From a virus (Duplodnaviria; Caudoviricetes): 64,000 nucleotides of DNA. The stretch spans positions 4,572 to 68,571 of the IMG/VR virus record IMGVR_UViG_3300037961_002553; one strand, written 5' to 3'. Under the pieces are notes generated by a model. The model saw only the letters and a program-made list of their open reading frames with translations, did not search any database and was not told the DNA's origin. Positions within the stretch are counted from its first letter, which is position 1. Each line of letters begins with the position of its first letter. Positions 19,728 through 63,196 of the stretch are shown here, in pieces. A program made the translations under genes and the position numbers.

Positions 19728-20285
19728 ATGAGAAAAGTATTAGTAATTGGAGCAGGCGGAATTGGAAGTTTTCTAATTCCTACATTAGATAAAGTTGGTC
19801 TTTACCGCATTCATGTGGCTGACCCCGATGGTGTAGAAACAAAGAATCTACCTTATCAAAACTTTAAGAAAGGCCATGTTGGGCAGAATAAGGCTCAAGT
19901 AATGATGGATTCCTACGAATCTGTTAGTTCTTTCAGTAAATACCCAATTTTAACGGCAAAACAAATGGAGGGCTATGACCTTGTGATTTGTTGCGTTGAT
20001 AACTTGGGCGTGAGGCGAACCTTATACAACACAACCCTTAAATGGCTTGACTTACGAGCGCAAGGCAGAAATGCCGCCCTTGTGTCGCATAAGGCCGACC
20101 CGAAGATGTATGATATGCTCTTAGCAGGTGAAGAAGGTTCATTCAGTTGTCAAGGGGATTCTTGGGATGGAACAAATAGTAATGTTCATTTTATGCAGGT
20201 CGCAATTGCAGGATTAGGCGCACAATGGATTCAAAGATACTTCAATGATGAAGAAGTGAGAGATTATATGGTGGTGAATGTATGA
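19728..20285 (+). CDS. ThiF/MoeB family E1-like adenylyltransferase
   Basis: VIGAGGIGS, DPDGVETKNLPYQ, GQNKA, DLVICCVDN...R; candidate catalytic Cys in FSCQ. Confidence 0.9.
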   Translation: MRKVLVIGAGGIGSFLIPTLDKVGLYRIHVADPDGVETKNLPYQNFKKGHVGQNKAQVMMDSYESVSSFSKYPILTAKQMEGYDLVICCVDNLGVRRTLYNTTLKWLDLRAQGRNAALVSHKADPKMYDMLLAGEEGSFSCQGDSWDGTNSNVHFMQVAIAGLGAQWIQRYFNDEEVRDYMVVNV

Positions 20286-21327: not shown

Positions 21328-21912
21328 ATGGGAAGAATTAAAGATAAAATGATTAAAGACGGTGATGACGACGATGATGATGGTTATGACCATTATGAGA
21401 TTGAACAAGCAGAATTGGAGTATTTTCGTCAAAAAGCAATTGATGACATTAAGGCTCACTATGAGATTCTTTTGAACGAACAGTTGCGTTCTTGCGTTGG
21501 CCCAAGAGAAAAACTAGAAGGTGTTGCTATGCATTCTTTAGCATTTCATGACACTATTTGGCAAGCATCTACGGAAACTCTTCCTAATCTTGAAGTGCAG
21601 GTTGTAATTGATGGAAAGAACAATTGTTTCGTTTCAACGGGAAGTCCGGGTTTTGTTGATTTCTTTGAGCCTCCAATTGGTATGACTCTTCCTATTCGTT
21701 GTTGGATTCATACTCATCCATTTGGTGCTGCTTATTTTAGTGGAACTGATATTCGGACTGTTTCTATCTGGGAACCAAATATGGAATGTGCATATGTTCT
21801 TGGTGGAACTGGGCATTATGGTTTTTGGGAGAGTCGCTTTGAACCTAAGCAATTAGGAATCTATGTGAACAATGAAGAACATGAAATCCAAACATGGGGT
21901 GAAGAAGAATGA
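21328..21912 (+). CDS. JAB/MPN+ metalloprotease (deubiquitinase-like)
   Basis: Upstream E (LEVQ) and WIHTHPFGAAYFSGTD = HxH-x7-S-x2-D JAMM motif. Confidence 0.88.
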   Translation: MGRIKDKMIKDGDDDDDDGYDHYEIEQAELEYFRQKAIDDIKAHYEILLNEQLRSCVGPREKLEGVAMHSLAFHDTIWQASTETLPNLEVQVVIDGKNNCFVSTGSPGFVDFFEPPIGMTLPIRCWIHTHPFGAAYFSGTDIRTVSIWEPNMECAYVLGGTGHYGFWESRFEPKQLGIYVNNEEHEIQTWGEEE

Positions 21913-22196: not shown

Positions 22197-22411
22197 AGGC
22201 TTTGGGCAATTATGCAGTAATTAAACTGGAAAATTCAGTATCTGCATCAGGTATTCAGGTTAAAATTGATAGCACAGGTATTGTGCATTCTTGTCCCTCA
22301 ATGCCCGAAGTGGAAGGTAAATTGGTTCTATTTGACGATAGACACCGTTTCGTGACTCACGAAGATATGATAGTTGTTTCTGTTGAACATTTATTGGGAG
22401 TGATTGAATGA
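22193..22411 (+). CDS. groES: GroES-like co-chaperonin
   Basis: MKALGNYAVIK...SASGI...LLGVIE, directly upstream of groEL. Confidence 0.75.
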   Translation: MKALGNYAVIKLENSVSASGIQVKIDSTGIVHSCPSMPEVEGKLVLFDDRHRFVTHEDMIVVSVEHLLGVIE

Positions 22412-23931
22412 TTTTGAATGGAGAAGAAGTAAAACAAAAGTTGCTACAAGGCATTAACTTGGTTGCTGATACAGTTAAACCAACATTAGGGCCACAAGCA
22501 AAAACTGTGATTTTACAGGGTAATCCTCCTGTTGTGATTAACGACGGAGTGACGATTACAAAATATATTTCCCATGACGACCCTTATGTTCAAATGGGAG
22601 TTCAATTAGTTCAAAATCTAGCAAGTAAAGCCCAAGAAGGTTCAGGCGACGGAACCACTACTGCTTGCATTCTTGCACAGGCTTTTTGTAATGAATTAAT
22701 GAAGAATGAAGAACACATGACTACACATGACTTTAATCTTCTAATGGAATCTCTTCGTGAGCAAACCATTAGTTTCTTAGATAGTATCTCTATGACTGTT
22801 GATGATATGGATATTTTCAATGTTGCTACGATTGCCGCAAACAACGATGCTTCTTTGGGTTCTTTAATCAAAGAAGCATTTAATACGGTTGGTCGTGATG
22901 GTGTGATTACTGTTGAAGAATCTAATGATTATCAAACTCAATTGATTCTTCGTGAAGGTATGGAAATCCAAGAAGGTTATTTGAGCCATCTTATGTGCAA
23001 TACGGAAAGTGGAAAGGTAGAGTTTAATAACCCTGTTGTTTTCATGTCAAATATGAGCCTCCGTCATTTCAAGGACATTATGCCTCTGCTTGAATATTCA
23101 GCGAGTCAAAGCCGACCTCTTTTGATTATGTGCAAAGGTATGGATGGTTCAGCACTTAACAATTTGATTATGAATCTAATCAATAAGACTGTTGAATGTG
23201 CAGTAGTTATGGCTCCTAATTTCGGAGATGCTCAAATTGATGAGTTGTCGGATATTCAGTCTTTAATTGGTGGTAAAGTCTTTGTTGAAGAAAGCAAGGA
23301 CGATTCTAAACTCTTTACTGAAACTGATTTGGGAACCTGTTCTAAAGTCATTATCACAAAAGAAACCACGACCTTTATTGGCGGAGAAGGCAATACCGAA
23401 GATAGAATCAAAGCCCTGAAAGAACAGGCACTTGATTTGAAAGGGCATGACTTGGCTCGGATTAAATCAAGAGTAGCCCGCCTCAAGGGTGGAATTGCTA
23501 CTATCAAGGTTGGTGCTTCTTCATCAATTGAAATGCGAGAAAAGAAAGAACGACTTGATGATGCACTTCACGCAACAAAAGCCGCCTTAGAAGAAGGTAT
23601 TGTTGTTGGTGGTGGTGTTCCATTTATTCGTCTTGCTTATGCCATTGAAGCACCCGAATGGTTTAGAAAGTCTGTTGTAAAACCTTATCGTGTTTTGATG
23701 GATAACGCAAACTACACCGAACAAACAAGAGTTGTGGGTTTTGAAATTGAAAAGACAATTGATGGAACAAATCCTAACTGGGGATTCAATGCCGTTTCAT
23801 GTCAGCATGAAGATTTGTTTAAGGCGGGAGTCTTTGACCCTGTGAAGGTTTCTAAGAACAGTTTCTTAGCAGCATTGTCAATTGCTCAGTTGTTTTATTC
23901 AACAGATGTAGCAGTATTAGTGGAGGAATAA
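22408..23931 (+). CDS. groEL: group I chaperonin GroEL
   Basis: TLGP, NDGVTI, GDGTTTA, GRDGVITVEES, IKVGA...EKKERLDDALHATKAALEEGIVVGGG, DPVKV. Confidence 0.95.
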   Translation: MILNGEEVKQKLLQGINLVADTVKPTLGPQAKTVILQGNPPVVINDGVTITKYISHDDPYVQMGVQLVQNLASKAQEGSGDGTTTACILAQAFCNELMKNEEHMTTHDFNLLMESLREQTISFLDSISMTVDDMDIFNVATIAANNDASLGSLIKEAFNTVGRDGVITVEESNDYQTQLILREGMEIQEGYLSHLMCNTESGKVEFNNPVVFMSNMSLRHFKDIMPLLEYSASQSRPLLIMCKGMDGSALNNLIMNLINKTVECAVVMAPNFGDAQIDELSDIQSLIGGKVFVEESKDDSKLFTETDLGTCSKVIITKETTTFIGGEGNTEDRIKALKEQALDLKGHDLARIKSRVARLKGGIATIKVGASSSIEMREKKERLDDALHATKAALEEGIVVGGGVPFIRLAYAIEAPEWFRKSVVKPYRVLMDNANYTEQTRVVGFEIEKTIDGTNPNWGFNAVSCQHEDLFKAGVFDPVKVSKNSFLAALSIAQLFYSTDVAVLVEE

Positions 23932-25716: not shown

Positions 25717-25945
25717 TTGGGTCTATCTAGCAAATGCTATGTGGACTTATTCGGAGAAGAATGAAGGAAGAATCAGTAGCCTTCTAAAACAACTGATTAG
25801 AGAAATAAATAACAATAAGGAGATGATTGAAAATGACATGGGAAAATATGAGCAGAATGCTACAAGCGACAGACCAATTGACACCGACTCAGCAGATAAG
25901 TCGGATTTCACGGGACTTGGAAACATTCACGACGGAGAAGAGTAA
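25703..25945 (+). CDS. hypothetical protein overlapping the ligase start
   Basis: GAGG SD. Confidence 0.45.
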   Translation: MKKSDWVYLANAMWTYSEKNEGRISSLLKQLIREINNNKEMIENDMGKYEQNATSDRPIDTDSADKSDFTGLGNIHDGEE

Positions 25946-27374
25946 TCCTTCTTTGGTTTTGCAGATTCTTGACAAAGATAAACTGGAAGCGAATAGCCTT
26001 GGTTTAGCAAAGGCAAAGAAATGGATGGCTAAAATCTTTGATGTTTTTGATGATGAGATTGATGGATTGATGTATGCTCACGATGATTTGGGCGAAGCAA
26101 TTTATCACCTTGACCCATCAGCAGAAAAGCAACGAAACTTTTCTGTTCAGTATGTTCATCGCATTTTGAACATGAACTGCGGAAAGATTGATTCTAATGA
26201 ATTTTCTATTCTTGAAGAATCAATTTTGGCTATGTCTGCAAATGCACGACGCTGGTTCATTCGCTATATGTTAAGAACACCACGAAACGGAATCAATGAA
26301 GGAACGGTTGCGAAGATTATTGCCAAGCACTACAATAAGAAGCAAGCAGATGTAAAGAAACATTTGAACTTCAATTCAATTGAAACAGTTGTTTCTCATT
26401 ATGTTGCAGGTTCTAATCCTCCATGCAATCTAACATATGGAAAGTTCGTTAAACCAATGCTTGCGAAAGAAGTTCCGATGAATAAGTGGCCGACTAACTT
26501 TGTTGTTGATTACAAATACGATGGAAACCGTTATCAAATTCACATTGATGGAGATAAGACTATGATTTTCAATCGTAAAGGTAAAATCGTAACTCAGCAA
26601 TTCCCCGATGTTGTTGAATTGGTTCAAGAATATGATGTTGAAAATGCGATTCTTGATGGTGAAATCTATCCTATCTTGGAAAATGGCGCACCTGCACCTC
26701 ATAAGCAAATGGGAACAAGGGTTCATTCAAAGAATGTTCAAGAGGCTATGGAAAGGGTCAAGGTTGAATGGGTCATTTTTGATTGTCTCATGTTGAACAA
26801 CGAAACAGTCATGGATTTGTCATACACGGAACGCTTGGAGAAGATGAAAGACTTGCCGAATCAAGCACACCGAATCACCGAGGGCGACATTATGGCCTTT
26901 TACCATGAAGCAATCAACGAAGGGTTTGAAGGAATCATCGTTAAGGATGCAAGCCAACCTTATCAATCAGGAAAACGCTCCGTTTTCTGGGCTAAATACA
27001 AACCTCCGCAGATTAATCTTGATGTTGTTATCCTCTCCGCAAAATACGGGGAAGGTAAGCGGTCAAATGTTTTCGGCACTTACGAATTAGGCGTGAGGGC
27101 TAATAATGGTTATCACAGCGTCGGATGGTGTGGAACAGGCTTCTCGGATAGCGATTTAATCAACCTCACCAACACGCTACGGCGTAATGTTGAATCCTTT
27201 GACAACGGGCGATTCTTTGTTTCGCCTGTTGTTGTTCTTGAAGTTAAGGCTGATTTGGTTAGCCGTGATGAAAAAGGAAACTTGGGTCTAAGGTTCCCAA
27301 GATGTGTCCGTATTCGTGATGATAAATTTGTTGCGGATATTAATACCTTGAATGATGTGGAGAGATTAGAATGA
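25833..27374 (+). CDS. lig: ATP-dependent DNA ligase
   Basis: KPMLA, DYKYDGNR, LDGEI, EGIIVK, WAKYK, LRFPRCVRIRDDK. Confidence 0.95.
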   Translation: MTWENMSRMLQATDQLTPTQQISRISRDLETFTTEKSNPSLVLQILDKDKLEANSLGLAKAKKWMAKIFDVFDDEIDGLMYAHDDLGEAIYHLDPSAEKQRNFSVQYVHRILNMNCGKIDSNEFSILEESILAMSANARRWFIRYMLRTPRNGINEGTVAKIIAKHYNKKQADVKKHLNFNSIETVVSHYVAGSNPPCNLTYGKFVKPMLAKEVPMNKWPTNFVVDYKYDGNRYQIHIDGDKTMIFNRKGKIVTQQFPDVVELVQEYDVENAILDGEIYPILENGAPAPHKQMGTRVHSKNVQEAMERVKVEWVIFDCLMLNNETVMDLSYTERLEKMKDLPNQAHRITEGDIMAFYHEAINEGFEGIIVKDASQPYQSGKRSVFWAKYKPPQINLDVVILSAKYGEGKRSNVFGTYELGVRANNGYHSVGWCGTGFSDSDLINLTNTLRRNVESFDNGRFFVSPVVVLEVKADLVSRDEKGNLGLRFPRCVRIRDDKFVADINTLNDVERLE

Positions 27375-33769: not shown

Positions 33770-35437
33770 ATGATAATTAGTAGAATGAATGATGGAAATA
33801 GAATATATAAATCTTGGAGAGAAAACGGAGAAAAGAAACATGAGATTGTTCCCTTTAGACCTTATTTCTATGTTAAGGAAGATAGTGCAGAACCATTTGA
33901 ATATAGACCTTCTAAATATATTAGTCGGGAGTTTGAGTATATTCGTGGCGATTGGGTTAATCTTAACAACGAGCCGTTGAAGAAGGTAATCGTTGAGACT
34001 TCTCACGATATGCGAAAAGCAAAGGATATGTTCGGTGAAACCTATGAAGCCGATGTTCCTTTTCACTTTCGGTATTGTGTTGATGAGTTAGATGAAATGC
34101 CCGAATATAAAATGCGTAAATGGTATTGGGATATGGAATGGCAACAAGGTGGCGATTATCACGACCAATTGACTACAATTGTTGTTTATGATAACTACGA
34201 TGAGAAATACTATCAATGGTCGTGGTTCCCTGAAGATGAATGGATTCCGAACAAACAACTTCAAGCAACCGATAATTATGAAACATATTTTTCTTTTTCA
34301 GAAAGAACAATGATTGAGTCTTTTATGAACGCTATGATTGTAAAAGACCCCGATATGTTAATTGCTTGGTTTGGTCATTTTGCTGATTTACCAAAGTTAT
34401 TTGAACGAGCGTGTGCGGTGGGTCTTGACCCTCGCATTATTTCACCAACGGCAACAGTCAAGGGAGTTAAGTCTGTAAAAGACGGCTATGAGTTCAAATA
34501 TTCGGAGAAAGGTTTTTCTCCAATTGAACAACCTATTGGTGGGCGAATTACACTTTCTTTGGACTTAGCATTTGAAAGACAATGGAATGATTCTCAAAGA
34601 GGAACATTACCCTCGCTTTCTCTTGATTATATCGGTGAAACAGTTCTTGATAAAAAGAAGTTGGTATCGGAAAAGTTTCCAGACACCAATGAATTTTATC
34701 GCAGGGCTTGGTTAGAAGATACACAAACATACCTCAAATATGCTTTGAGAGATGTTGAATTGATGGTTGAGATTGACGAAACTAATTTTTGTAGTGAAGC
34801 AATTCTTTCTCTTCAACGATTACTGAAAGCACCATTTGATGCTTGTTTTTATGCAAGTCATATGGGTTCTATCTACTTTATGCGAAACGCTTGGTGGAAA
34901 GCACCAACGGGTAGTAAAGTGGATAAAAGAGAAGAATATGAAGGGGCTATGATTTACGACCCATTAAGTGAAGGAACAAACGGATTACATTTAAATGTAG
35001 CCGCCTTTGATTTTGCTGGTCTATACCCTTCAATGATGATTGCTCGCAATATCAGTTGGGAAACTAAATCAGTAGAGCCGACTGAATTTGCAGTTAATAT
35101 TCTTACTCCGAGAGACTTTAGCGAAACAAAACATGAGCAGATGCTCTATTACAAAACGGATAAACTCGGCTTACTACCAAGAGCCGTCCTTGAATTGAAG
35201 GAGTTGCGAAATGAATATAAACGACTGATGCGAGAGGCAAGAGAAACGGACAATGGCGAGTATGCGAAGTGGTATAACAATCAAATGGCAGTTAAGCGTC
35301 TAATGGCTTCTTTTTATGGCATTGTTGCCTTTCAAGGATTTGGTTGGGCTGATGTTGATTTGGCGGCATCTATTACTGCAAGTGCAAGAGAAGCAATTAG
35401 ATTAGCGGCGTTTGCTGCAAAGGAGATGGAAGCATGA
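33770..35437 (+). CDS. polB: family B DNA polymerase, N-terminal part (exonuclease plus motifs A and B)
   Basis: FRPYFY, YEADV, WDME, FDFAGLYPSMM, QMAVKRLMASFYG; ends at ITASAREAI before motif C. Confidence 0.93.
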   Translation: MIISRMNDGNRIYKSWRENGEKKHEIVPFRPYFYVKEDSAEPFEYRPSKYISREFEYIRGDWVNLNNEPLKKVIVETSHDMRKAKDMFGETYEADVPFHFRYCVDELDEMPEYKMRKWYWDMEWQQGGDYHDQLTTIVVYDNYDEKYYQWSWFPEDEWIPNKQLQATDNYETYFSFSERTMIESFMNAMIVKDPDMLIAWFGHFADLPKLFERACAVGLDPRIISPTATVKGVKSVKDGYEFKYSEKGFSPIEQPIGGRITLSLDLAFERQWNDSQRGTLPSLSLDYIGETVLDKKKLVSEKFPDTNEFYRRAWLEDTQTYLKYALRDVELMVEIDETNFCSEAILSLQRLLKAPFDACFYASHMGSIYFMRNAWWKAPTGSKVDKREEYEGAMIYDPLSEGTNGLHLNVAAFDFAGLYPSMMIARNISWETKSVEPTEFAVNILTPRDFSETKHEQMLYYKTDKLGLLPRAVLELKELRNEYKRLMREARETDNGEYAKWYNNQMAVKRLMASFYGIVAFQGFGWADVDLAASITASAREAIRLAAFAAKEMEA

Positions 35438-35643
35438 ACAGTTTTTGTAAAAATTGGATTAATCAAGAAATACCTAATATGCCAGATGGATTTACTGCAT
35501 CACAAATGCACAGCAGGCTATCTAATTTGGGCAAAACTTTAAAATATCTTGAAAATACGACTTGTATTGGGGTTTATCTCAAAAGACACAAAGCCTTAAC
35601 TATGAATGATTCATCGGGAATTAGAACCTATTGGAGGAAATAA
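35434..35643 (+). CDS. small hypothetical protein (winged-helix-like) between the polB halves
   Basis: ATGA overlap with polB-N. Confidence 0.55.
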   Translation: MNSFCKNWINQEIPNMPDGFTASQMHSRLSNLGKTLKYLENTTCIGVYLKRHKALTMNDSSGIRTYWRK

Positions 35644-35819: not shown

Positions 35820-35928
35820 ATTATTGGAGGAATTATTGATGATGATTAACAGAAGCAACAAAATTCTAATGATGGTCAATGTGGTTAATATTGCGACAAT
35901 CATTACATTACTGGTGGTGGTATTATGA
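35797..35928 (+). CDS. small membrane protein (43 aa)
   Basis: Hand-translated MMMDRTNELLEELL...IATIITLLVVVL. Confidence 0.5.
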   Translation: MMMDRTNELLEELLMMINRSNKILMMVNVVNIATIITLLVVVL

Positions 35929-36146
35929 CCGATGATAGAGTATATTTAGAAACACTAAAAGAAATTAAAAACATGAAAGAACAAATGCATAAAGAAATTT
36001 CTAGAATGAAGGCGGAAATGGATATTATGTATATTGAATTACAAAGAGCAAAACAAGAAATTGGTGCTATTCGTGAAATACAAGAAGAAGTAGCAAAATT
36101 AGCAGGTGTTCCTGTTGGAATGCTATTTACAAATTACCGAGCGTGA
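35925..36146 (+). CDS. coiled-coil hypothetical protein
   Basis: ATGA overlap; heptad pattern. Confidence 0.6.
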   Translation: MTDDRVYLETLKEIKNMKEQMHKEISRMKAEMDIMYIELQRAKQEIGAIREIQEEVAKLAGVPVGMLFTNYRA

Positions 36147-36150
36147 TAAC

Positions 36151-37044
36151 TTGAAAGTAGTTTATGGACATACAGATTCTATCTATGTGCAGATAGATTC
36201 GGTGGAGCAAGCACAAAAATCAATTAAAGAGATTGAGGCAAAAGTGCGAGAACATTTTCCTAATGTGATGGGATTAGATAATCATCCCGTTGTTCTTGAA
36301 TTTGAAAAGTATTATTCAGCATTGGGTGTTGGAACAACCAAAAACAGAAACGCAGGATTAGTGTCTTGGGAAGATGGAGAATGGTTAGAAAAACCAAAGT
36401 TCAGTATGACTGGATTTACGGCGAAGCGTGTTAGCGAAACAAAATTAGCGAAAGAAGTGCAAACAAATGCTCTCAAAATGTGGGTAGAACAAAAGACCTA
36501 TCCTGAAATTACCAAGTATTTGTATGAAACATTTAAATCTGTGAATGAAGGGGATATTCCAATCTCTTCCATTATCAAAAGAAGCCGTCTAAGGCAAAAC
36601 CGTTTCACAGTAAAATGCCCCGAATGCAAGACACAATATCATTTGCGTGATTGTATTCATCTAAAGCATAAAGTTTGTGAAAAGTGCGCTACACCAACGA
36701 AGCAATTTACCACTCTTGAAGGAAAGAAGCCGACGATTGGTTCGGGTATTGCTGGTGTTTTGTATGCTTGGGAAAAGAAAAAGGCTAATTTTGATGACTC
36801 TTATCTCTTCTTAAAAGTAAAGAGAGTAAATGATTTCTATACGCATCCTTTAACGCAAGAAAGGCGAGAAGTGGAATACTTATCAGGCATAACCTACGAG
36901 GATTTCAAGGGTTGTAGTCCCGATTGGGGCTTCTATTCGCAACAGGTTATCAAGAAGGCGGAACCCATTTTCAAGGCTATGGGATGGGACACAACGGCCA
37001 TACGCACAGGAAAAATACAGTCAAGCCTTGACGAATGGTGGTGA
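36151..37044 (+). CDS. polB: family B DNA polymerase, C-terminal part (motif C and thumb) with a Zn-ribbon insertion
   Basis: VVYGHTDSIYV, LEFEK, KNRNAG, CPEC...CEKC; C-terminal PIP-like QSSLDEWW; TTG start. Confidence 0.88.
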   Translation: MKVVYGHTDSIYVQIDSVEQAQKSIKEIEAKVREHFPNVMGLDNHPVVLEFEKYYSALGVGTTKNRNAGLVSWEDGEWLEKPKFSMTGFTAKRVSETKLAKEVQTNALKMWVEQKTYPEITKYLYETFKSVNEGDIPISSIIKRSRLRQNRFTVKCPECKTQYHLRDCIHLKHKVCEKCATPTKQFTTLEGKKPTIGSGIAGVLYAWEKKKANFDDSYLFLKVKRVNDFYTHPLTQERREVEYLSGITYEDFKGCSPDWGFYSQQVIKKAEPIFKAMGWDTTAIRTGKIQSSLDEWW

Positions 37045-57612: not shown

Positions 57613-58923
57613 TCAGTCCAAGAAATAAACTAAATCGCCTTTGCCTTTCAAAATATCCATCGCTTCTTTACGAAGTATATCATATTTTTCTTTAGTAGAA
57701 ATATTACCACCCGATTCTGTAATTAGAATACTTTGGTCATCATGCCGTATAATTTCAGATGCTGCTAATTTTGTTGTTGCTTCGTGAATAGCAGAAGGAA
57801 CTCGATTATCTCCAGCAATATATGAAACAATAACTGAATTGTTTCTATGATAAGGATAATCTTTCAAAAAGAAAATACGGCCTTCTTCATTAATTGTCCA
57901 ATAGTCGCCAAGTCTTCTTAAATCTTCTTTGTCTGTAAATGCGTCTAATGTGCAAACAGTTGGTATTTCACTAGTAGTAGTAAATGTCAAATTTCCTGAA
58001 AATGCGCCTCCTGTTGTAGCATGAGTTAAAACAACAGTAGTTGAATCAGTAATAGAAGCAATTGTAGCCGCAGAAGGAACATTAGCACTTCTTTCACCAC
58101 TTATTGTCATCCCTACTGCTAATTTACTAGAATCAGCAACGGTGAGATTAACTGAGTTATTACCCGAAGTAGCCTGTTTTATGGTAGCCTTGAGAACACA
58201 ATCAGCCCCATCATCGCCCGAAAGTAGGGATGAGAAGAGGATTTGCTTGCCATTTGACTTGGCCTTTGCCGCATAGAAAAAGTCTGAAATGGATAAATTA
58301 GATTGAGTGAGGCTTTTTGGAGCAGTTGCACCAGTAAATTGCGACATTGAAGGAAATGATTCATTTACCAAAGAGATGATTTCTTCATTGGTTGTTTTGA
58401 TACCAAAGGTATTATTGAACTCATCGTTTGCTAAATCAGTCAAATCATTTTCTGCAAGCATCTCAAAAGACACACCGCTATTCGGTAATTGAAGAATAAT
58501 AGAATTTAAATCTCTAAAGTTATCAAGCAAAGTTATTTTTGCTTGAGCCGATGCAATTTCAATATACTGGCTGCCTTGCCACAAAAGCAAGGAAACAATC
58601 TTTCTTACTTTCATTTTGGCTAATTGCACAAAACCAACATGACCACCGTAATATGCCTTGTGTGGCAAGTGAGAAAATTCAAAGTTATGATACTCGTCCT
58701 TCGTGATAATTGGACGGTATGAACGCTTTACCTTGTCATCAATGATTCCTTCAACCCTTTTGATGATTGAACCGACTTGAGCCAATGTGGGGTATGTTGA
58801 TGCTGAAAAGGCAGGAACTTGGAGTAAATTAGCAACCTCAGTAGCATTTGTATAAAAACCCCGACCTTGAGAGTAATCGGGATTAATTTCTGTAAAATCG
58901 CTTGGCGAGATTGTTGTTCCCAT
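57613..58923 (-). CDS. head-tail adaptor with a large beta-rich insertion
   Basis: YTNATEV...IIDD N-terminus; VIVSYIAGDNRVPSAIHEATTKLAA C-terminus. Confidence 0.65.
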   Translation of the reverse strand: MGTTISPSDFTEINPDYSQGRGFYTNATEVANLLQVPAFSASTYPTLAQVGSIIKRVEGIIDDKVKRSYRPIITKDEYHNFEFSHLPHKAYYGGHVGFVQLAKMKVRKIVSLLLWQGSQYIEIASAQAKITLLDNFRDLNSIILQLPNSGVSFEMLAENDLTDLANDEFNNTFGIKTTNEEIISLVNESFPSMSQFTGATAPKSLTQSNLSISDFFYAAKAKSNGKQILFSSLLSGDDGADCVLKATIKQATSGNNSVNLTVADSSKLAVGMTISGERSANVPSAATIASITDSTTVVLTHATTGGAFSGNLTFTTTSEIPTVCTLDAFTDKEDLRRLGDYWTINEEGRIFFLKDYPYHRNNSVIVSYIAGDNRVPSAIHEATTKLAASEIIRHDDQSILITESGGNISTKEKYDILRKEAMDILKGKGDLVYFLD

Positions 58924-58924
58924 T

Positions 58925-60556
58925 TTAGACACCAATCATTCTCTTTAATTTCCTTACATTCTTTTTGAGTTTATTTGAGTAAGCAACCATGCTTCTGTTT
59001 TGCCTTGAACGAGAACCGCTTAGGTTATATTCACCATGCTTAGTCGCTTCAAATGTTAATTCAACATAGGCTTGTTTAAAAGCATCTTCAAGGTCTGCGG
59101 CACGAACAGTTTCGGCCTTTACCTCTTCTTCACCAAATTCAGCAGAATCTTTTGTGCTTTTGACTCCACTTTCATCGACCTCATAATATCTAATTTCAGA
59201 CTTATAGTTTTCTTTTTCTTCTTTTGGTAATTTAGCATATTCTTCTTCAGAAATAAAAATTGGGTTTCCATCCTCATCTTTTTCTGTTTTATGACTAAAT
59301 GCTCTTTTAGATTGTTCATCAATCATAGATTGAGTTAATGGCTTTCCTTCTTTTCCTGTTTCTACATCCATTACCCGTAAATCTTCTGCCGATTCGGTAG
59401 CAAATTCTCTATATGTTGGCGCAGTTTTCTTTTTGGTTTTAATATTTCCAATGACCTTAAAAGAATAAACTTCATCAGGAACAACTAAAAATGGGTTAAG
59501 TATTCTCATAATGATATTTTTAACTGCTTCATCTTTAAAGAAGCCTTCAATTGTTCCTGCTCCATCTCCTTCAAATTCAAGGTATGCTTGTTTATCTGAC
59601 TCTCCTTGAGGAGTAAATTGATAGGTATAATATTTATCTCCAATTTGAATAATATCTTCATCTCTCATTTCATCAGTTCTATCTAAACTGTCCACCGCAG
59701 CAGGAACTGTAAAAATATTTATTTCGTCATTTGTGTCTTCTGATATTGGAATTTTACCCCCAACTGATTCAAATTGACCATCTTCGTTTATTTTAGCCTC
59801 TATAACATAATCATCTTTTGCTGATTCTATATCTAATTTTTCTAAAACAGATTTAGGAATATCAAAGGAATAATCAATTACTTCCTTTGCAATATTTATT
59901 TTTGTATTGCTTGGTCTATAACCTGCTTCTTGACCAGTTGTTTCTAAAATAAAATCTGCTTTTACTTTTTCTAAATCACCGTAATCAAATGCAGGAAACT
60001 TAGCCTCAATGTGTCCTTTAAGGCCACTTCGGGCAGGTTGGTGAGAATAATTAAATCTATCATTATATCTTGCGTGTTCTCTAAAAAGAAGTTCAAAAGC
60101 AATTCGAGGTTTTTTTCCATATGCTGAAAAGAAATCATCAAAATCAAAGTCAGGTAGTTTGGTTTTACCACCACGAATAAAAGAAACATCTGTTCCTTTC
60201 AATCTGCCAAGAACTCTTGCATTAGTAATATCTCCAACTGTTTTATCTTCAATAAAAGAAAGATTTGCTTCATTTGGTGTTTTATCTCTCTTACGAGAAA
60301 ACCCTTTCCATGAAGCAGCATCTCTCTCTAAGATTGGTTTTAGCGGCTCATTAAGAACCTTTTCTAAAATTTTGGTTAATTCGCTCTTTAATGCAGCACT
60401 ATTTGGTTCACTATCTTCTACACTTTCAATGGCCTTTCTCATCTTACGACGAAATTCTTTATCGCCATTAAGAACATAGTCTTTCATTTGTGTTTCAATA
60501 AAAGACGCTGAACGGGGCAAACTAAGAGTCTGCTTACCCCAATTGAAATTAACCAT
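58925..60556 (-). CDS. hypothetical protein (543 aa)
   Basis: GAGGTG SD; long ORF. Confidence 0.7.
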   Translation of the reverse strand: MVNFNWGKQTLSLPRSASFIETQMKDYVLNGDKEFRRKMRKAIESVEDSEPNSAALKSELTKILEKVLNEPLKPILERDAASWKGFSRKRDKTPNEANLSFIEDKTVGDITNARVLGRLKGTDVSFIRGGKTKLPDFDFDDFFSAYGKKPRIAFELLFREHARYNDRFNYSHQPARSGLKGHIEAKFPAFDYGDLEKVKADFILETTGQEAGYRPSNTKINIAKEVIDYSFDIPKSVLEKLDIESAKDDYVIEAKINEDGQFESVGGKIPISEDTNDEINIFTVPAAVDSLDRTDEMRDEDIIQIGDKYYTYQFTPQGESDKQAYLEFEGDGAGTIEGFFKDEAVKNIIMRILNPFLVVPDEVYSFKVIGNIKTKKKTAPTYREFATESAEDLRVMDVETGKEGKPLTQSMIDEQSKRAFSHKTEKDEDGNPIFISEEEYAKLPKEEKENYKSEIRYYEVDESGVKSTKDSAEFGEEEVKAETVRAADLEDAFKQAYVELTFEATKHGEYNLSGSRSRQNRSMVAYSNKLKKNVRKLKRMIGV

Positions 60557-60566
60557 TTATTTCACC

Positions 60567-61226
60567 TCACATGAGCCATTTTGCCCAAGCAGCACCTTTT
60601 TGAATTGCTGAACCTAAACCTAAACCGCTTTGCGGTGGTTCATAACTCATTTGGCCTTGTGCATCAATCCAGTAAGGTCGGCCATATCCGTCTGTTCCCG
60701 ATGGAGGAACAGGATAACCTGAGCCATTATTCATAGCGCCCTGCATTTGGGCATATTGTTGCTGATTGCCAGTAATTCCTGCGATTGCTGATGCTGCGGT
60801 TGGCTGAGTAATTTGTTGTATTCCATTGCCACCAAAACCTTGAGATTCGAGATATTGCTGTTTAGCCATCTTTCTTTGCATAATAACTTCAGTATTGATA
60901 GCCGATTGTAATAACTTCTGAATATCTAAATCAATGTTTTCTTGAGTAATTCTTTCGTATTCACGAAGAGCATCTCTATTGACAGTAAGGTTGCTTCCGT
61001 TAGAATCAAAACTTAACTTAGCCAACATTTGAGAAACTACTCGTTCAACAACATCTTCCATTAACTTTTCAAGAGCAACCAAGAATTGTTCTCCATGATA
61101 TTGAAAGAACTCCTCAACATGATTTTCCTGTAAAGATAATAAATTATTTACTGTCTTAAATTGTGCGTCTGATTGTTGCTGAACTGCATTTAAAACTGTT
61201 CCATTGCTTGTTCCTAAAATTCCCAT
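60567..61226 (-). CDS. Gln/Gly-rich protein with C-terminal amphipathic helix
   Basis: GGAGG SD; ends GLGSAIQKGAAWAKWLM. Confidence 0.7.
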   Translation of the reverse strand: MGILGTSNGTVLNAVQQQSDAQFKTVNNLLSLQENHVEEFFQYHGEQFLVALEKLMEDVVERVVSQMLAKLSFDSNGSNLTVNRDALREYERITQENIDLDIQKLLQSAINTEVIMQRKMAKQQYLESQGFGGNGIQQITQPTAASAIAGITGNQQQYAQMQGAMNNGSGYPVPPSGTDGYGRPYWIDAQGQMSYEPPQSGLGLGSAIQKGAAWAKWLM

Positions 61227-61228
61227 GT

Positions 61229-61909
61229 TTATGCCTCCTTAACCAATTCCTCTTTTGCTTCGTCTTGCGGTAATTCATTTTGTGCTTGAACATTGTGCTT
61301 AAGCATTAAATGATTGAGTCTTTCTGTCATAATATTTATTTCTGTAATCAAACGAATGACTTCATCCGTTGCCGTCTTTGAATCTCCTAATGCGGGTGGG
61401 GTTATAAACCATCCTGCTGATGTAAGGCTCATAACATCTTCTTTGCTTAAATTCTTAATTGGGCCACTCTTAAGTATTTTAGGCATTCGTGGTTTGAAGG
61501 CACTAAATTCAAGTCCATGCTTATCTGCAAGAATTTGTTGTTGTAGCATTTCTAATTGCATATACATAGAAGCGTGTTTAGGACAATAAGTTCCCATTAG
61601 GGGTCTTCCTTTCACTACACCATCTAAAGGCATAGGTGGACGCATATAATCTCCTTGTTCCCAAATATGATGGAAACCACAGACAACACACCTATCTTTA
61701 AGATTAAATTTCTTTCCATACTTAATACCTAAAAACTTCTTTGGTTCTGCTTTTAAAACCAATTTAAGTTCTTTTAATTGAGTCTTAGGTTTATATGAAA
61801 TAAACTTGTATTCTTGCACAACACCGCTTGCTCTTGCCTGTTGAAGTGGCGAAAGAGCAGGATTAAATTGTTGTGGTGCAGTTTGTCCTATAATATTGTT
61901 TTGATACAT
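61229..61909 (-). CDS. zinc-binding protein with coiled-coil tail
   Basis: CVVCGFHH...YCPKH. Confidence 0.7.
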   Translation of the reverse strand: MYQNNIIGQTAPQQFNPALSPLQQARASGVVQEYKFISYKPKTQLKELKLVLKAEPKKFLGIKYGKKFNLKDRCVVCGFHHIWEQGDYMRPPMPLDGVVKGRPLMGTYCPKHASMYMQLEMLQQQILADKHGLEFSAFKPRMPKILKSGPIKNLSKEDVMSLTSAGWFITPPALGDSKTATDEVIRLITEINIMTERLNHLMLKHNVQAQNELPQDEAKEELVKEA

Positions 61910-61914
61910 AATAA

Positions 61915-62583
61915 TCAGTAGTCCTTTATCATTGTAGTAATTCCTCTATAAACCATTTCGGGGTCAGACTTTGCAGATACAATATATTTAAAACATGGTA
62001 TTCCTTTATCGTTTAACTTTCTCATGCCGTATTTGAATGGTTCAAAAATCTCATGTTTATCTATTTCTTGGCCTTCCGCTAAAGGGTATTTCTTTCCCCA
62101 AATATCATATTTATTTGCCCAAATACCTACTGCCATTGGATAATCAGATTCTCTTTTCTTTTTTCCATTTGACCATGTTTTTGAAATTATGGTATCAACT
62201 AAAAATTTCCATGCTAATTGGTGGTCTAAGTTAATTTCATTATCTAAATGTCGGTGGTCAATCATAAAAACAATGTATTTTACTCGTCGATTTTGCATAT
62301 CTTTTTCCCATTCTTTCCAGTAAATTGCTTCTCCGCCAATATCTGCACTTCTTACTGTATGAGAATTACCATCTATTTTAACATTTTTTCTCGTTGCTCT
62401 ATGTCGTCCAACGGTTCTTTCATTAATTTGTTGAACTTCTCCTCTCGTTCTTAATTGATGACTTAATGTTGTTTTACCAACCATCGTTGCTCCATAAACT
62501 CCAAAATTAATAGCGTGAACCTTTTTGTAAAATCCTATAATTGCTTCACCGACAAGAATAGCAAATCCTGTCATTAATGACAT
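61915..62583 (-). CDS. Ras-superfamily (Arf-like) small GTPase
   Basis: G1 GATMVGKTT, G2 RTVG, G3 DIGGE, G4 NKYD, G5 SAK; hydrophobic N-terminal helix. Confidence 0.85.
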   Translation of the reverse strand: MSLMTGFAILVGEAIIGFYKKVHAINFGVYGATMVGKTTLSHQLRTRGEVQQINERTVGRHRATRKNVKIDGNSHTVRSADIGGEAIYWKEWEKDMQNRRVKYIVFMIDHRHLDNEINLDHQLAWKFLVDTIISKTWSNGKKKRESDYPMAVGIWANKYDIWGKKYPLAEGQEIDKHEIFEPFKYGMRKLNDKGIPCFKYIVSAKSDPEMVYRGITTMIKDY

Positions 62584-62801
62584 TAATGCCCCCACCCATT
62601 GAGAAGGTTATCAAATAACCAACCCATAACATTAATATCAAAAACACCCATGATGTTTCCGATTAAAAATGCTGAAAGCGTAGCACAAGAAGCCCAAAAA
62701 AGCATTCGCATCTTCAAAAAGAAAATGTCTGCTGAATGCGCTCTTTGAGCATTGTAAGCATAATCTGAATCAGAAAAGCCCATTATGTCGCCAAAGACCA
62801 T
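62583..62801 (-). CDS. small membrane protein
   Basis: Hydrophobic segment MLFWASCATLSAFLIGNIMGVF. Confidence 0.65.
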   Translation of the reverse strand: MVFGDIMGFSDSDYAYNAQRAHSADIFFLKMRMLFWASCATLSAFLIGNIMGVFDINVMGWLFDNLLNGWGH

Positions 62802-62812
62802 TCTTTCACCGC

Positions 62813-63196
62813 CTATTGAAGTGCGGCTAAGAACTCATTACCAACGCTATTCTCTTCTTCCTGCTGAACAGGTTGATAAAAGGTAGTGTTGTATTGCTTT
62901 GCGCTTTCACGCATCTTTTGGCGTTGTTGTTCATCTCTAGCCTTTCTTTCCCAGTATGCCGCAATTTTACGGTCTAAGAGCCAAAGTTCAATTCTATCAT
63001 TGAGTGATAAATCAAAGATTGCTTTCATAACCATAATTGCGCCAATTGTTCCTAAACCAAATAGAACAGAATGGGCTAATGGGCCATATGGGAAATTCAT
63101 CCCAAATGCTGCATATGCCCAAACATTTGTTCCGCTTAATGCACCGACAAATAAAATTGTCATAATTAGACGAGTATCTTGACTTAATGCTGCCAT
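62813..63196 (-). CDS. two-TM membrane protein with coiled-coil tail
   Basis: Two hydrophobic segments; GAGGTG SD. Confidence 0.7.
   Translation of the reverse strand: MAALSQDTRLIMTILFVGALSGTNVWAYAAFGMNFPYGPLAHSVLFGLGTIGAIMVMKAIFDLSLNDRIELWLLDRKIAAYWERKARDEQQRQKMRESAKQYNTTFYQPVQQEEENSVGNEFLAALQ

Follow-up and report, generated by a model that had tools for sequence, protein, structure and literature searches.

A conserved five-gene cassette around a divergent Arf-like GTPase in magroviruses, a tentative candidate for virion egress

Description

The closest described systems are cellular small GTPases, the GTPases of giant viruses and the holin cassettes of phages. Members of the Arf family (Arf, Arl, Sar1, SR-beta and Asgard ArfR; 8OUN/8OUM) have a Ras-like G1-G5 domain with a DxGG motif and a Trp. 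ArvABC (OapABC) of Euryarchaeota and DPANN, as described in an excerpt of PMC10927574, joins a small GTPase with an N-terminal hydrophobic helix to a Cys-containing Zn-type protein in one operon and acts on membranes. Giant eukaryotic viruses encode Ras-superfamily switches such as the mimivirus Rab (5XC5). Holins, for which we use the definition in an excerpted 2024 review (PMC10791045), are called "elusive" in archaeal virus genomes in that excerpt, where the lytic exit of head-tail viruses is drawn just as a hypothesis. Here we describe a cassette of five minus-strand genes, one of them for an Arf-like small GTPase, at positions 60567-63196 of a 64-kb stretch of DNA (hereafter the window) taken from the 68,571-base virus record IMGVR_UViG_3300037961_002553 (CheckV completeness estimate 74%). 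The source is a magrovirus, a tailed virus infecting Poseidoniales (Marine Group II archaea), and the gene content of the window matches the magrovirus description excerpted from Philosof et al., 2017 (PMC5434244).

The cassette is conserved as a unit, is co-inherited as a module and is core to this virus group. Its GTPase is placed nearest Arf/Arl/SR-beta by profile and by modelled structure and is very divergent, and the GTPase family appears to be virus-only. The five products quite probably form a membrane-bound GTP switch complex, judging from their sequences and from the structure model. The fuller reading, in which one conserved virus-only cassette around a membrane-anchored Arf-type GTPase would serve a late membrane event, with egress as the likeliest such event, is given somewhat less than an even chance. 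A full-text literature search returned no paper on archaeal-virus-encoded GTPases, and the word "GTPase" is absent from the main text of PMC5434244, PMC10160649, PMC11706807 and PMC8651126, whose supplementary gene tables may name the gene. Automatic annotation by the Joint Genome Institute (JGI) tags some homologues "GTPase SAR1 family protein", and a homologue of 79% identity carries the NCBI name [quoted passage not shown].

All five open reading frames (ORFs) of the original prediction, which had proposed an Arf-like GTPase and membrane-protein module for lysis or vesiculation, are present on the minus strand. The features of the cassette, in the order of transcription, are as follows (aa, amino acids; TM, transmembrane; KD19, Kyte-Doolittle hydropathy averaged over 19 residues; AF2, AlphaFold2):

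62813-63196, minus strand: TMa, 127 aa, with hydrophobic segments at about residues 10-31 and 40-61 and then a tail of 61 residues (ORF, KD19)
62583-62801, minus strand: TMb, 72 aa, with an acidic N-terminus, one TM segment at about residues 33-54 and a conserved C-terminal Trp (ORF, alignment)
61915-62595, minus strand: Arf-like small GTPase, 226 aa from a GTG or, more probably, 222 aa counted from an ATG (62581-62583)
62518-62592, minus strand: N-terminal hydrophobic helix of the GTPase, residues 2-26 (AF2 model, KD19 1.89)
62329-62343, minus strand: switch II/G3 of the GTPase, D85-I-G-G-E89, followed by the family-invariant W96
62137-62184, minus strand: basic insert of the GTPase, residues 138-153 (KKKR within), between alpha3 and beta5
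61229-61909, minus strand: Cys/His ("Zn") protein, 226 aa, always immediately 3' of the GTPase
61574-61690, minus strand: putative metal site of the Cys/His protein, C74-x2-C77 ... C109-P-x-H112 (alignment)
60567-61226, minus strand: Q/G-rich protein, 219 aa

The genes are tightly packed, with gaps of 11, -13, 5 and 2 nt and 10 nt to the next gene, and Shine-Dalgarno (SD)-like GAGGTG/GGAGG motifs lie 5' of most genes of the block.

Conservation and distribution

Scans of IMG/VR recovered 269 contigs with close relatives of the window GTPase (clade I), 127 with a second clade and 4 with a third, and a metagenome scan recovered 11 contigs with a fourth. In a maximum-likelihood (ML) tree, for which 14 rows each were subsampled from clades I and II, the four clades have support of at least 99/99, with about 1 change per site on the branches between them. 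The GTPase ORF is present at 160 of 164 loci. In all four clades the gene for a membrane protein comes first, then those for a small membrane protein, the GTPase, the Cys/His protein and the Q-rich protein, and this order is held in 160 loci of clades I-III and three loci of clade IV. The genes predicted to belong together are thus found together, in one order, in four clades whose GTPases are about 30% identical and whose flanks are unrelated.

Those flanks are a 2200-2350-aa ORF with no Pfam match upstream of the cassette in clade II, a thermosome gene in clade III and glycosyltransferase genes in clade IV; the adjacency to neck genes in the original prediction holds for the window's clade, clade I, and not for these three. 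On the clade-IV contig L166 (1813-5102), genes for an 808-aa double GT4, a GT2 glycosyltransferase and a 3-TM protein stand in that order directly before the cassette. BLAST of distant loci against the 98 ORFs of the window found the GTPase to be the sole shared protein in 4 of 6. Among records chosen by family-B DNA polymerase (PolB), the GTPase occurs in 8 of the 8 that are at least 90% complete and in 10 of 16 overall, the six that lack it being 49-59% complete.

The clades differ in the size and number of the encoded proteins. In clade I the 127-aa protein, with two TM segments in 73/78 loci, is followed by the 72-aa protein, the GTPase and proteins of 220 and 217 aa. The clade-II set starts with a membrane protein of 186 aa and a 1-TM protein of 82 aa (75/75 loci), then has the GTPase and proteins of 294 and 206 aa, the last of which, at the Q-rich position, has a TM-like segment in 51 of 76 loci; two more proteins follow the cassette, each of about 82 aa and with 2 TM segments. 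A protein of about 70-82 aa stands at the TMb position in all four clades. Clade IV has an extra gene of about 250 aa between TMb and the GTPase (L166:7229-7999, L175:7217-7999, L171:6435-7181). Its product is extremely acidic, includes a stretch of over 25 Asp and has no match to any family or to the rest of the cassette.

Profile-profile comparison with hhalign, with cross-position controls at or below 1.2%, gave at least 99.8% for the GTPase in every pair of clades. Values for the Cys/His protein were 95.2% (I-II), 95.9% (I-III), 100% (II-III), 99.8% (II-IV) and 5.2% (I-IV). These two proteins are therefore taken as homologous throughout the clades. The Q-rich protein gave 92% (I-III), 73% (II-IV) and 0.5% (I-II); TMa gave 97.8% (II-III), 97.3% (II-IV) and at most 9% for clade I against the rest; and TMb gave 92.8% (II-IV), 50% (II-III) and 23.5% (I-III). 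By these alignments, what the clade-I membrane proteins share with the others is only their position and architecture.

The family is narrow, with 61 clusters at E<=1e-3 among 1.84 billion. A tblastn search of 50,697 phage records with the GTPase gave no match, and 185,579 species genomes gave one, on a 12.2-kb contig (L165; NZMJ01000024.1) in an alphaproteobacterial metagenome-assembled genome (MAG), "Maricaulis sp."; that GTPase is 86% identical to the window protein, so the contig is most likely viral and misbinned. Scans of viral contigs with the distant members P0169, P0173 and P0133 returned no relative, and P0177 was an orphan in a word-indexed search. The 184,733-base IMG/VR record G005 has two GTPase copies, at 67191-67847 and 159030-159677, 91.8 kb apart; the record probably consists of a roughly 92-kb genome in two head-to-tail copies and does not stand for a larger virus.

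The GTPase and its relation to Arf

The complete set of G motifs in the original prediction can be read in the window protein: G1 G35ATMVGKT42, G2 T61, G3 D85IGG88, G4 N161KYD164 and G5 S207AK209. G1, DxxG (G3) and NKxD (G4) occur in 134/134 unique relatives and the G5 SA[KRL] in 126/134; with its G domain intact, the protein should be able to bind nucleotide. The Arf switch II motif is D-[VIL]-G-G-Q, and the residue after DxGG varies by clade in the viral family, being E, Q, H or D among the 134 unique sequences. DIGGE, the form of the window's clade, accounts for 64; Q is present in 43, including 30 DIGGQ and 12 DVGGQ in clade II; and H is present in 3, from clade III. Much of clade II has the Arf form, and clade III, with DxGGH, resembles Sar1. 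W96 is invariant and lies 11 residues past D85, and the alignment to Arl8A has a Trp at that position. A Trp 11 residues after the switch II Asp is what we take to be a general Arf signature.

The AF2 model (pLDDT, predicted local distance difference test, 87.1; pTM, predicted template modelling score, 0.83) has a long helix at residues 2-26 and then a Ras-like fold. The hydrophobic N-terminal helix of the original prediction stands: it is of TM grade, not amphipathic, in the window protein, with a median KD of 1.63 and a hydrophobic moment of 0.18 across clade I, and appears suited to membrane binding as in the Arf family, whose helix is released when GTP binds (the interswitch toggle). The N-terminus is weaker and Gly/Ala-rich in clades II and III (KD medians 1.09 and 0.89, respectively). 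The predicted "MG" start probably does not stand. Most homologues begin at M5 of the window ORF, whose ATG is preceded by GGGTGGGGG and overlaps the upstream stop codon as TAATG, so the product is probably 222 aa and the "MG" start an artefact of taking the longest ORF. Between alpha3 and beta5 the insert is 17 aa with 4 K/R in the window's clade and 21-22 aa with 9-10 K/R in clades II-IV; to our knowledge canonical Arf has no insert there. The distant relative P0148 (264 aa, on a 10.9-kb contig) has a Cys-rich insert, C-x2-C ... C-x-C, after G4, which gives the impression of a small zinc finger set inside the G domain. No GTPase fusion turned up in 318 longer candidates, though this evidence is weak.

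Assignment to the Arf type, as originally predicted, is upheld by three comparisons. A profile built from 16 family members, searched against the PDB, matched GerdArfR1 (Asgard Arf, 8oun_A) at 1.5e-7, Arl3 at about 5e-7 and Arl8 at 2e-6, ahead of Rab33 (2e-5) and of Sar1 and KRas (both about 1e-4); some hits of this search are chance matches to the P-loop only. Structure comparison places the GTPase nearer to Arf-type than to other small GTPases by a margin of less than 2 Z units, so the structural preference is modest. The distant members P0177, P0173 and P0169 pass the Pfam Arf cut-off (22.3 bits) over their full length, with 57.2, 36.5 and 27.2 bits, respectively. The window protein by itself reaches 20.3 bits against NCBIfam small_GTP (cut-off 42.5), and its phmmer match in the PDB is Arl8A at E 0.73.

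Unlike Arf, the viral GTPase has a TM-grade N-terminus that is neither amphipathic nor myristoylated, falls under the Pfam Arf cut-off in the case of the window protein, has Glu for Gln in that protein and carries a basic insert of 17-22 residues. It is encoded by an archaeal virus, and its partners are orphans, not known GEFs (guanine nucleotide exchange factors), GAPs (GTPase-activating proteins) or coat proteins. In a structure search of BFVD, the best 50 matches listed are all of giant eukaryotic virus type. Giant-virus GTPases are Rab/Ran/Ras copies from eukaryotic hosts, whereas the magrovirus family is Arf-like, belongs to archaeal tailed viruses and has no close cellular counterpart.

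The partner proteins

TMa has a KD19 of 1.89 over residues 43-61 and a Q-rich charged tail with 10 K/R and 11 D/E. It has no match in Pfam, PHROG, NCBIfam or PADLOC, and neither TMa nor TMb matches a described holin or lysis family in Pfam or PHROG. Small size, at least one TM segment and a hydrophilic, charged C-terminal domain are holin-like features that TMa shows, and they are non-specific.

The Cys/His protein has the motifs C74-x2-C77, H80-H81 and C109-x2-H112. Its predicted zinc binding is partly borne out by the alignment: C74 and C109 are invariant and H112 is nearly so (at least 90% retain H112 and R102), and C77 is specific to clade I. An ArfGAP would have a C4 zinc finger and a conserved arginine finger, but Pfam at E<=0.1 gave no ArfGap match, only two Cys are invariant and R102 is not; the sole match at that threshold is a chance-level Csm6 HEPN (0.039). 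The AF2 model is poor (pLDDT 52.6), and a search of the ESM Atlas returned a top score of 0.82, which is chance level.

The Q/G-rich protein contains 27 Q and 22 G; its N-terminal half is helical, it has a stretch of low complexity made of Q, G and N, and it ends in a helix rich in W. PHROG has no structural family that matches any of the five proteins. Apart from the HEPN match, the partners have no Pfam match at E<=0.1, and on these searches they appear to belong to no known family.

Proposed function

In the proposed mechanism the N-terminal helix and basic insert would hold the GTPase to the host membrane from the cytoplasmic side, next to TMa and TMb. The GTPase would alternate between GTP and GDP states, with the Cys/His and Q-rich proteins serving as regulator and/or effector, and this switch would set the timing or place of a membrane event late in infection. 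The host membrane would then be opened or remodelled to release tailed virions, with the holin-like TMa as the membrane-active part. Membrane association is suggested by the TM-grade segments in three of the five proteins, the polybasic insert and the extra 2-TM proteins of clade II. Late timing is suggested by the strand and tight spacing that the clade-I cassette has in common with the capsid, neck and tail genes.

Egress is ranked first among outputs because TMa is built like holins in general, nothing else in the window can be recognised as a candidate for lysis, and the way out of the cell taken by head-tail archaeal viruses is so far a matter of hypothesis. The absence of recognisable lysis genes, part of the original prediction, was borne out: none of the 98 window ORFs has a lysis-category PHROG match (19 at E<=0.01, 79 at E<=1e-5). 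Tape measure aside, TMa, TMb and the GTPase are the only late-block proteins with TM-grade segments. TMa is like the holins of phage cassettes in its small size, two TM segments, highly charged C-terminal tail and late operon. The magrovirus cassette differs from them in having no endolysin and no match to a PHROG lysis family, and its host has no murein; we know of no holin system that includes a GTPase, and made no search for one. As the specific output of the cassette, virion egress is a tentative assignment and would have to be called doubtful. Slightly more doubtful is GTP-gated lysis, the form of egress in which the Arf-type GTPase would time or trigger the passage of holin-like TMa and TMb from harmless to membrane-breaking.

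Several points weigh against this proposal. Glu replaces the catalytic Gln in the window's clade, so that GTP hydrolysis may differ from that of Arf. The best Pfam match of the window GTPase is MMR_HSR1 (2.5e-4; 21.6 bits, cut-off 21.9), not Arf, and Arf (0.009) scores about as Ras does (0.0097), both at 15.9 bits and under the Arf cut-off of 22.3. The late-operon position is specific to a clade, since the cassettes of clades III and IV come after thermosome or glycosyltransferase genes. By hhalign, clade-I TMa, TMb and Q-rich proteins do not match those of clade II significantly (<=9%, <=24% and 0.5%, respectively). Lysis and vesiculation, the outputs of the original prediction, are inferences. 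We know of no GTPase-controlled lysis system, and none was searched for.

Other outputs would fit a membrane-bound switch. Non-lytic membrane remodelling, either vesicle formation or a membrane-associated site of replication or assembly, in outline like ArvA-ArvB-ArvC or coat recruitment by Arf/Sar1, is unlikely. It would account for an Arf-like G domain with an N-terminal membrane helix and for the position of the cassette outside the structural genes in clades III and IV, and the order of GTPase and Cys/His genes recalls arvA followed by the Zn-ribbon arvC in the excerpted account (PMC10927574). Nevertheless, OapB (ArvB; PF09846/DUF2073) and OapC (ArvC; PF09845/DUF2072 Zn-ribbon) have no match on the 68.6-kb contig, with Haloferax volcanii and Methanosarcina acetivorans matched as controls; the partners lack Pfam matches; and a tailed, non-enveloped virion has no obvious use for vesicles. 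The link to ArvA drawn in the original prediction gained no support from these searches. The viral cassette also adds two integral membrane proteins and a Q-rich protein to the ArvABC scheme, and the parallel, drawn from published descriptions, would hold in outline only. The clade-I cassette, lying between capsid-proximal genes and adaptor-like and tail-tube genes, and the clade-II cassette, lying after a giant ORF that may be structural, would suit a factor for virion morphogenesis, acting in head, neck or tail assembly at the membrane or supplying packaged or injected proteins. We consider this improbable: the cassette moves apart from the structural genes in clades III and IV, its proteins match no PHROG structural family and TM-anchored proteins are unusual in the heads of tailed viruses.

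A little more improbable still is a role in targeting or envelope modification, in which an anchored GTPase akin to SR-beta would act as a receptor at the membrane and bring viral proteins, or the machinery for glycosylation, to the membrane or surface layer (S-layer). Weak Pfam matches to SRPRB (PF09439) in 3 of 16 family members point that way, as does the clade-IV cassette directly after the GT4, GT2 and 3-TM protein genes, but the SRPRB scores (12.5 bits for the window GTPase, 22.5 for the best member) are under the cut-off of 25, the glycosyltransferase adjacency is confined to one clade and no SR-alpha-like partner was recognised. The fast divergence of the membrane proteins between clades, together with the fact that membrane-located exclusion systems are common in phages, would agree with a membrane-located module for superinfection exclusion, defence or counter-defence. 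Such a role has a low probability, given that PADLOC matched 0 of 20 cassette proteins from the four clades, that the cassette is core (8/8 complete relatives) and not accessory, and that the GTPase is among the most conserved genes across clades. Least probable by far is a ribosome- or translation-associated GTPase of the Era/Der/MMR_HSR1 type that reprograms host translation. The top single-sequence Pfam match is indeed MMR_HSR1, and the basic insert could bind RNA, but profile and structure comparison favour Arf-type small GTPases, no KH or other RNA-binding domain is present, and the hydrophobic N-terminus and membrane-protein neighbours speak for the membrane.

Genome setting

The window is organised in two blocks. 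From about 7 to 42.5 kb runs a plus-strand block with genes for a UvrD-type helicase, class II ribonucleotide reductase, a TFIIB-type zinc-ribbon protein, ThiF and JAB domain proteins, a thermosome-type chaperonin, an ATP-dependent DNA ligase, an RFC-like clamp loader, a processivity factor, PD-(D/E)XK and ERCC4 nucleases and a family-B DNA polymerase in two genes. The two polymerase genes (33770-35437 and 36106-37044) are about 670 nt apart, with the small ORFs 35434-35643 and 35925-36146 inside the gap. Genes of the ThiF family (E1-like) and with JAB domains are clustered beside the divergent thermosome-type chaperonin gene (19728-20285, 21328-21912 and 22408-23931), and this chaperonin is just 21% identical to the clade-III virus thermosome.

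Tail genes lie in the minus-strand block (about 43-64 kb): those for the tail tube, the tail assembly chaperone, the tape measure and a tail protein of 2055 aa. Here, as in clade I generally, the cassette sits between capsid-proximal genes (upstream) and adaptor-like and tail genes (downstream). The last 90 residues of a 440-aa protein (57613-58935) match phrog_17057 (3.9e-14, function unknown), and to us this C-terminal region suggests a domain of the head-tail adaptor kind, preceded by a long N-terminal extension. In a relative (L006:2715-5720), beyond the end of the window, a 1001-aa ORF lies directly 5' of the prohead protease gene; its residues 255-440 match an ATP-dependent DNA ligase domain (Pfam 2.6e-28) and the remainder has no match; the window has a separate DNA ligase gene in the replication block, at 25827-27374. 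An N-terminal W-x-x-[IV]-L-[KR] tag was found in 0 of the 98 window ORFs.

Significance

As a core and apparently virus-only set that combines a GTP switch with small membrane proteins, the cassette is a concrete five-gene candidate for the exit of archaeal tailed viruses, and it could be expressed in model archaea although the natural host is uncultured. Among the best 50 BFVD matches, virus-encoded small GTPases come from giant eukaryotic viruses only, so a deep Arf-like family in archaeal tailed viruses bears on the spread of Arf-type membrane switches outside eukaryotes. If the egress reading is true, the cassette would be a long-sought egress machine for archaeal tailed viruses, whose hosts lack murein walls, and GTP-gated lysis without a bacteriophage counterpart would operate in a virus group that ranks among the most abundant of the surface ocean.

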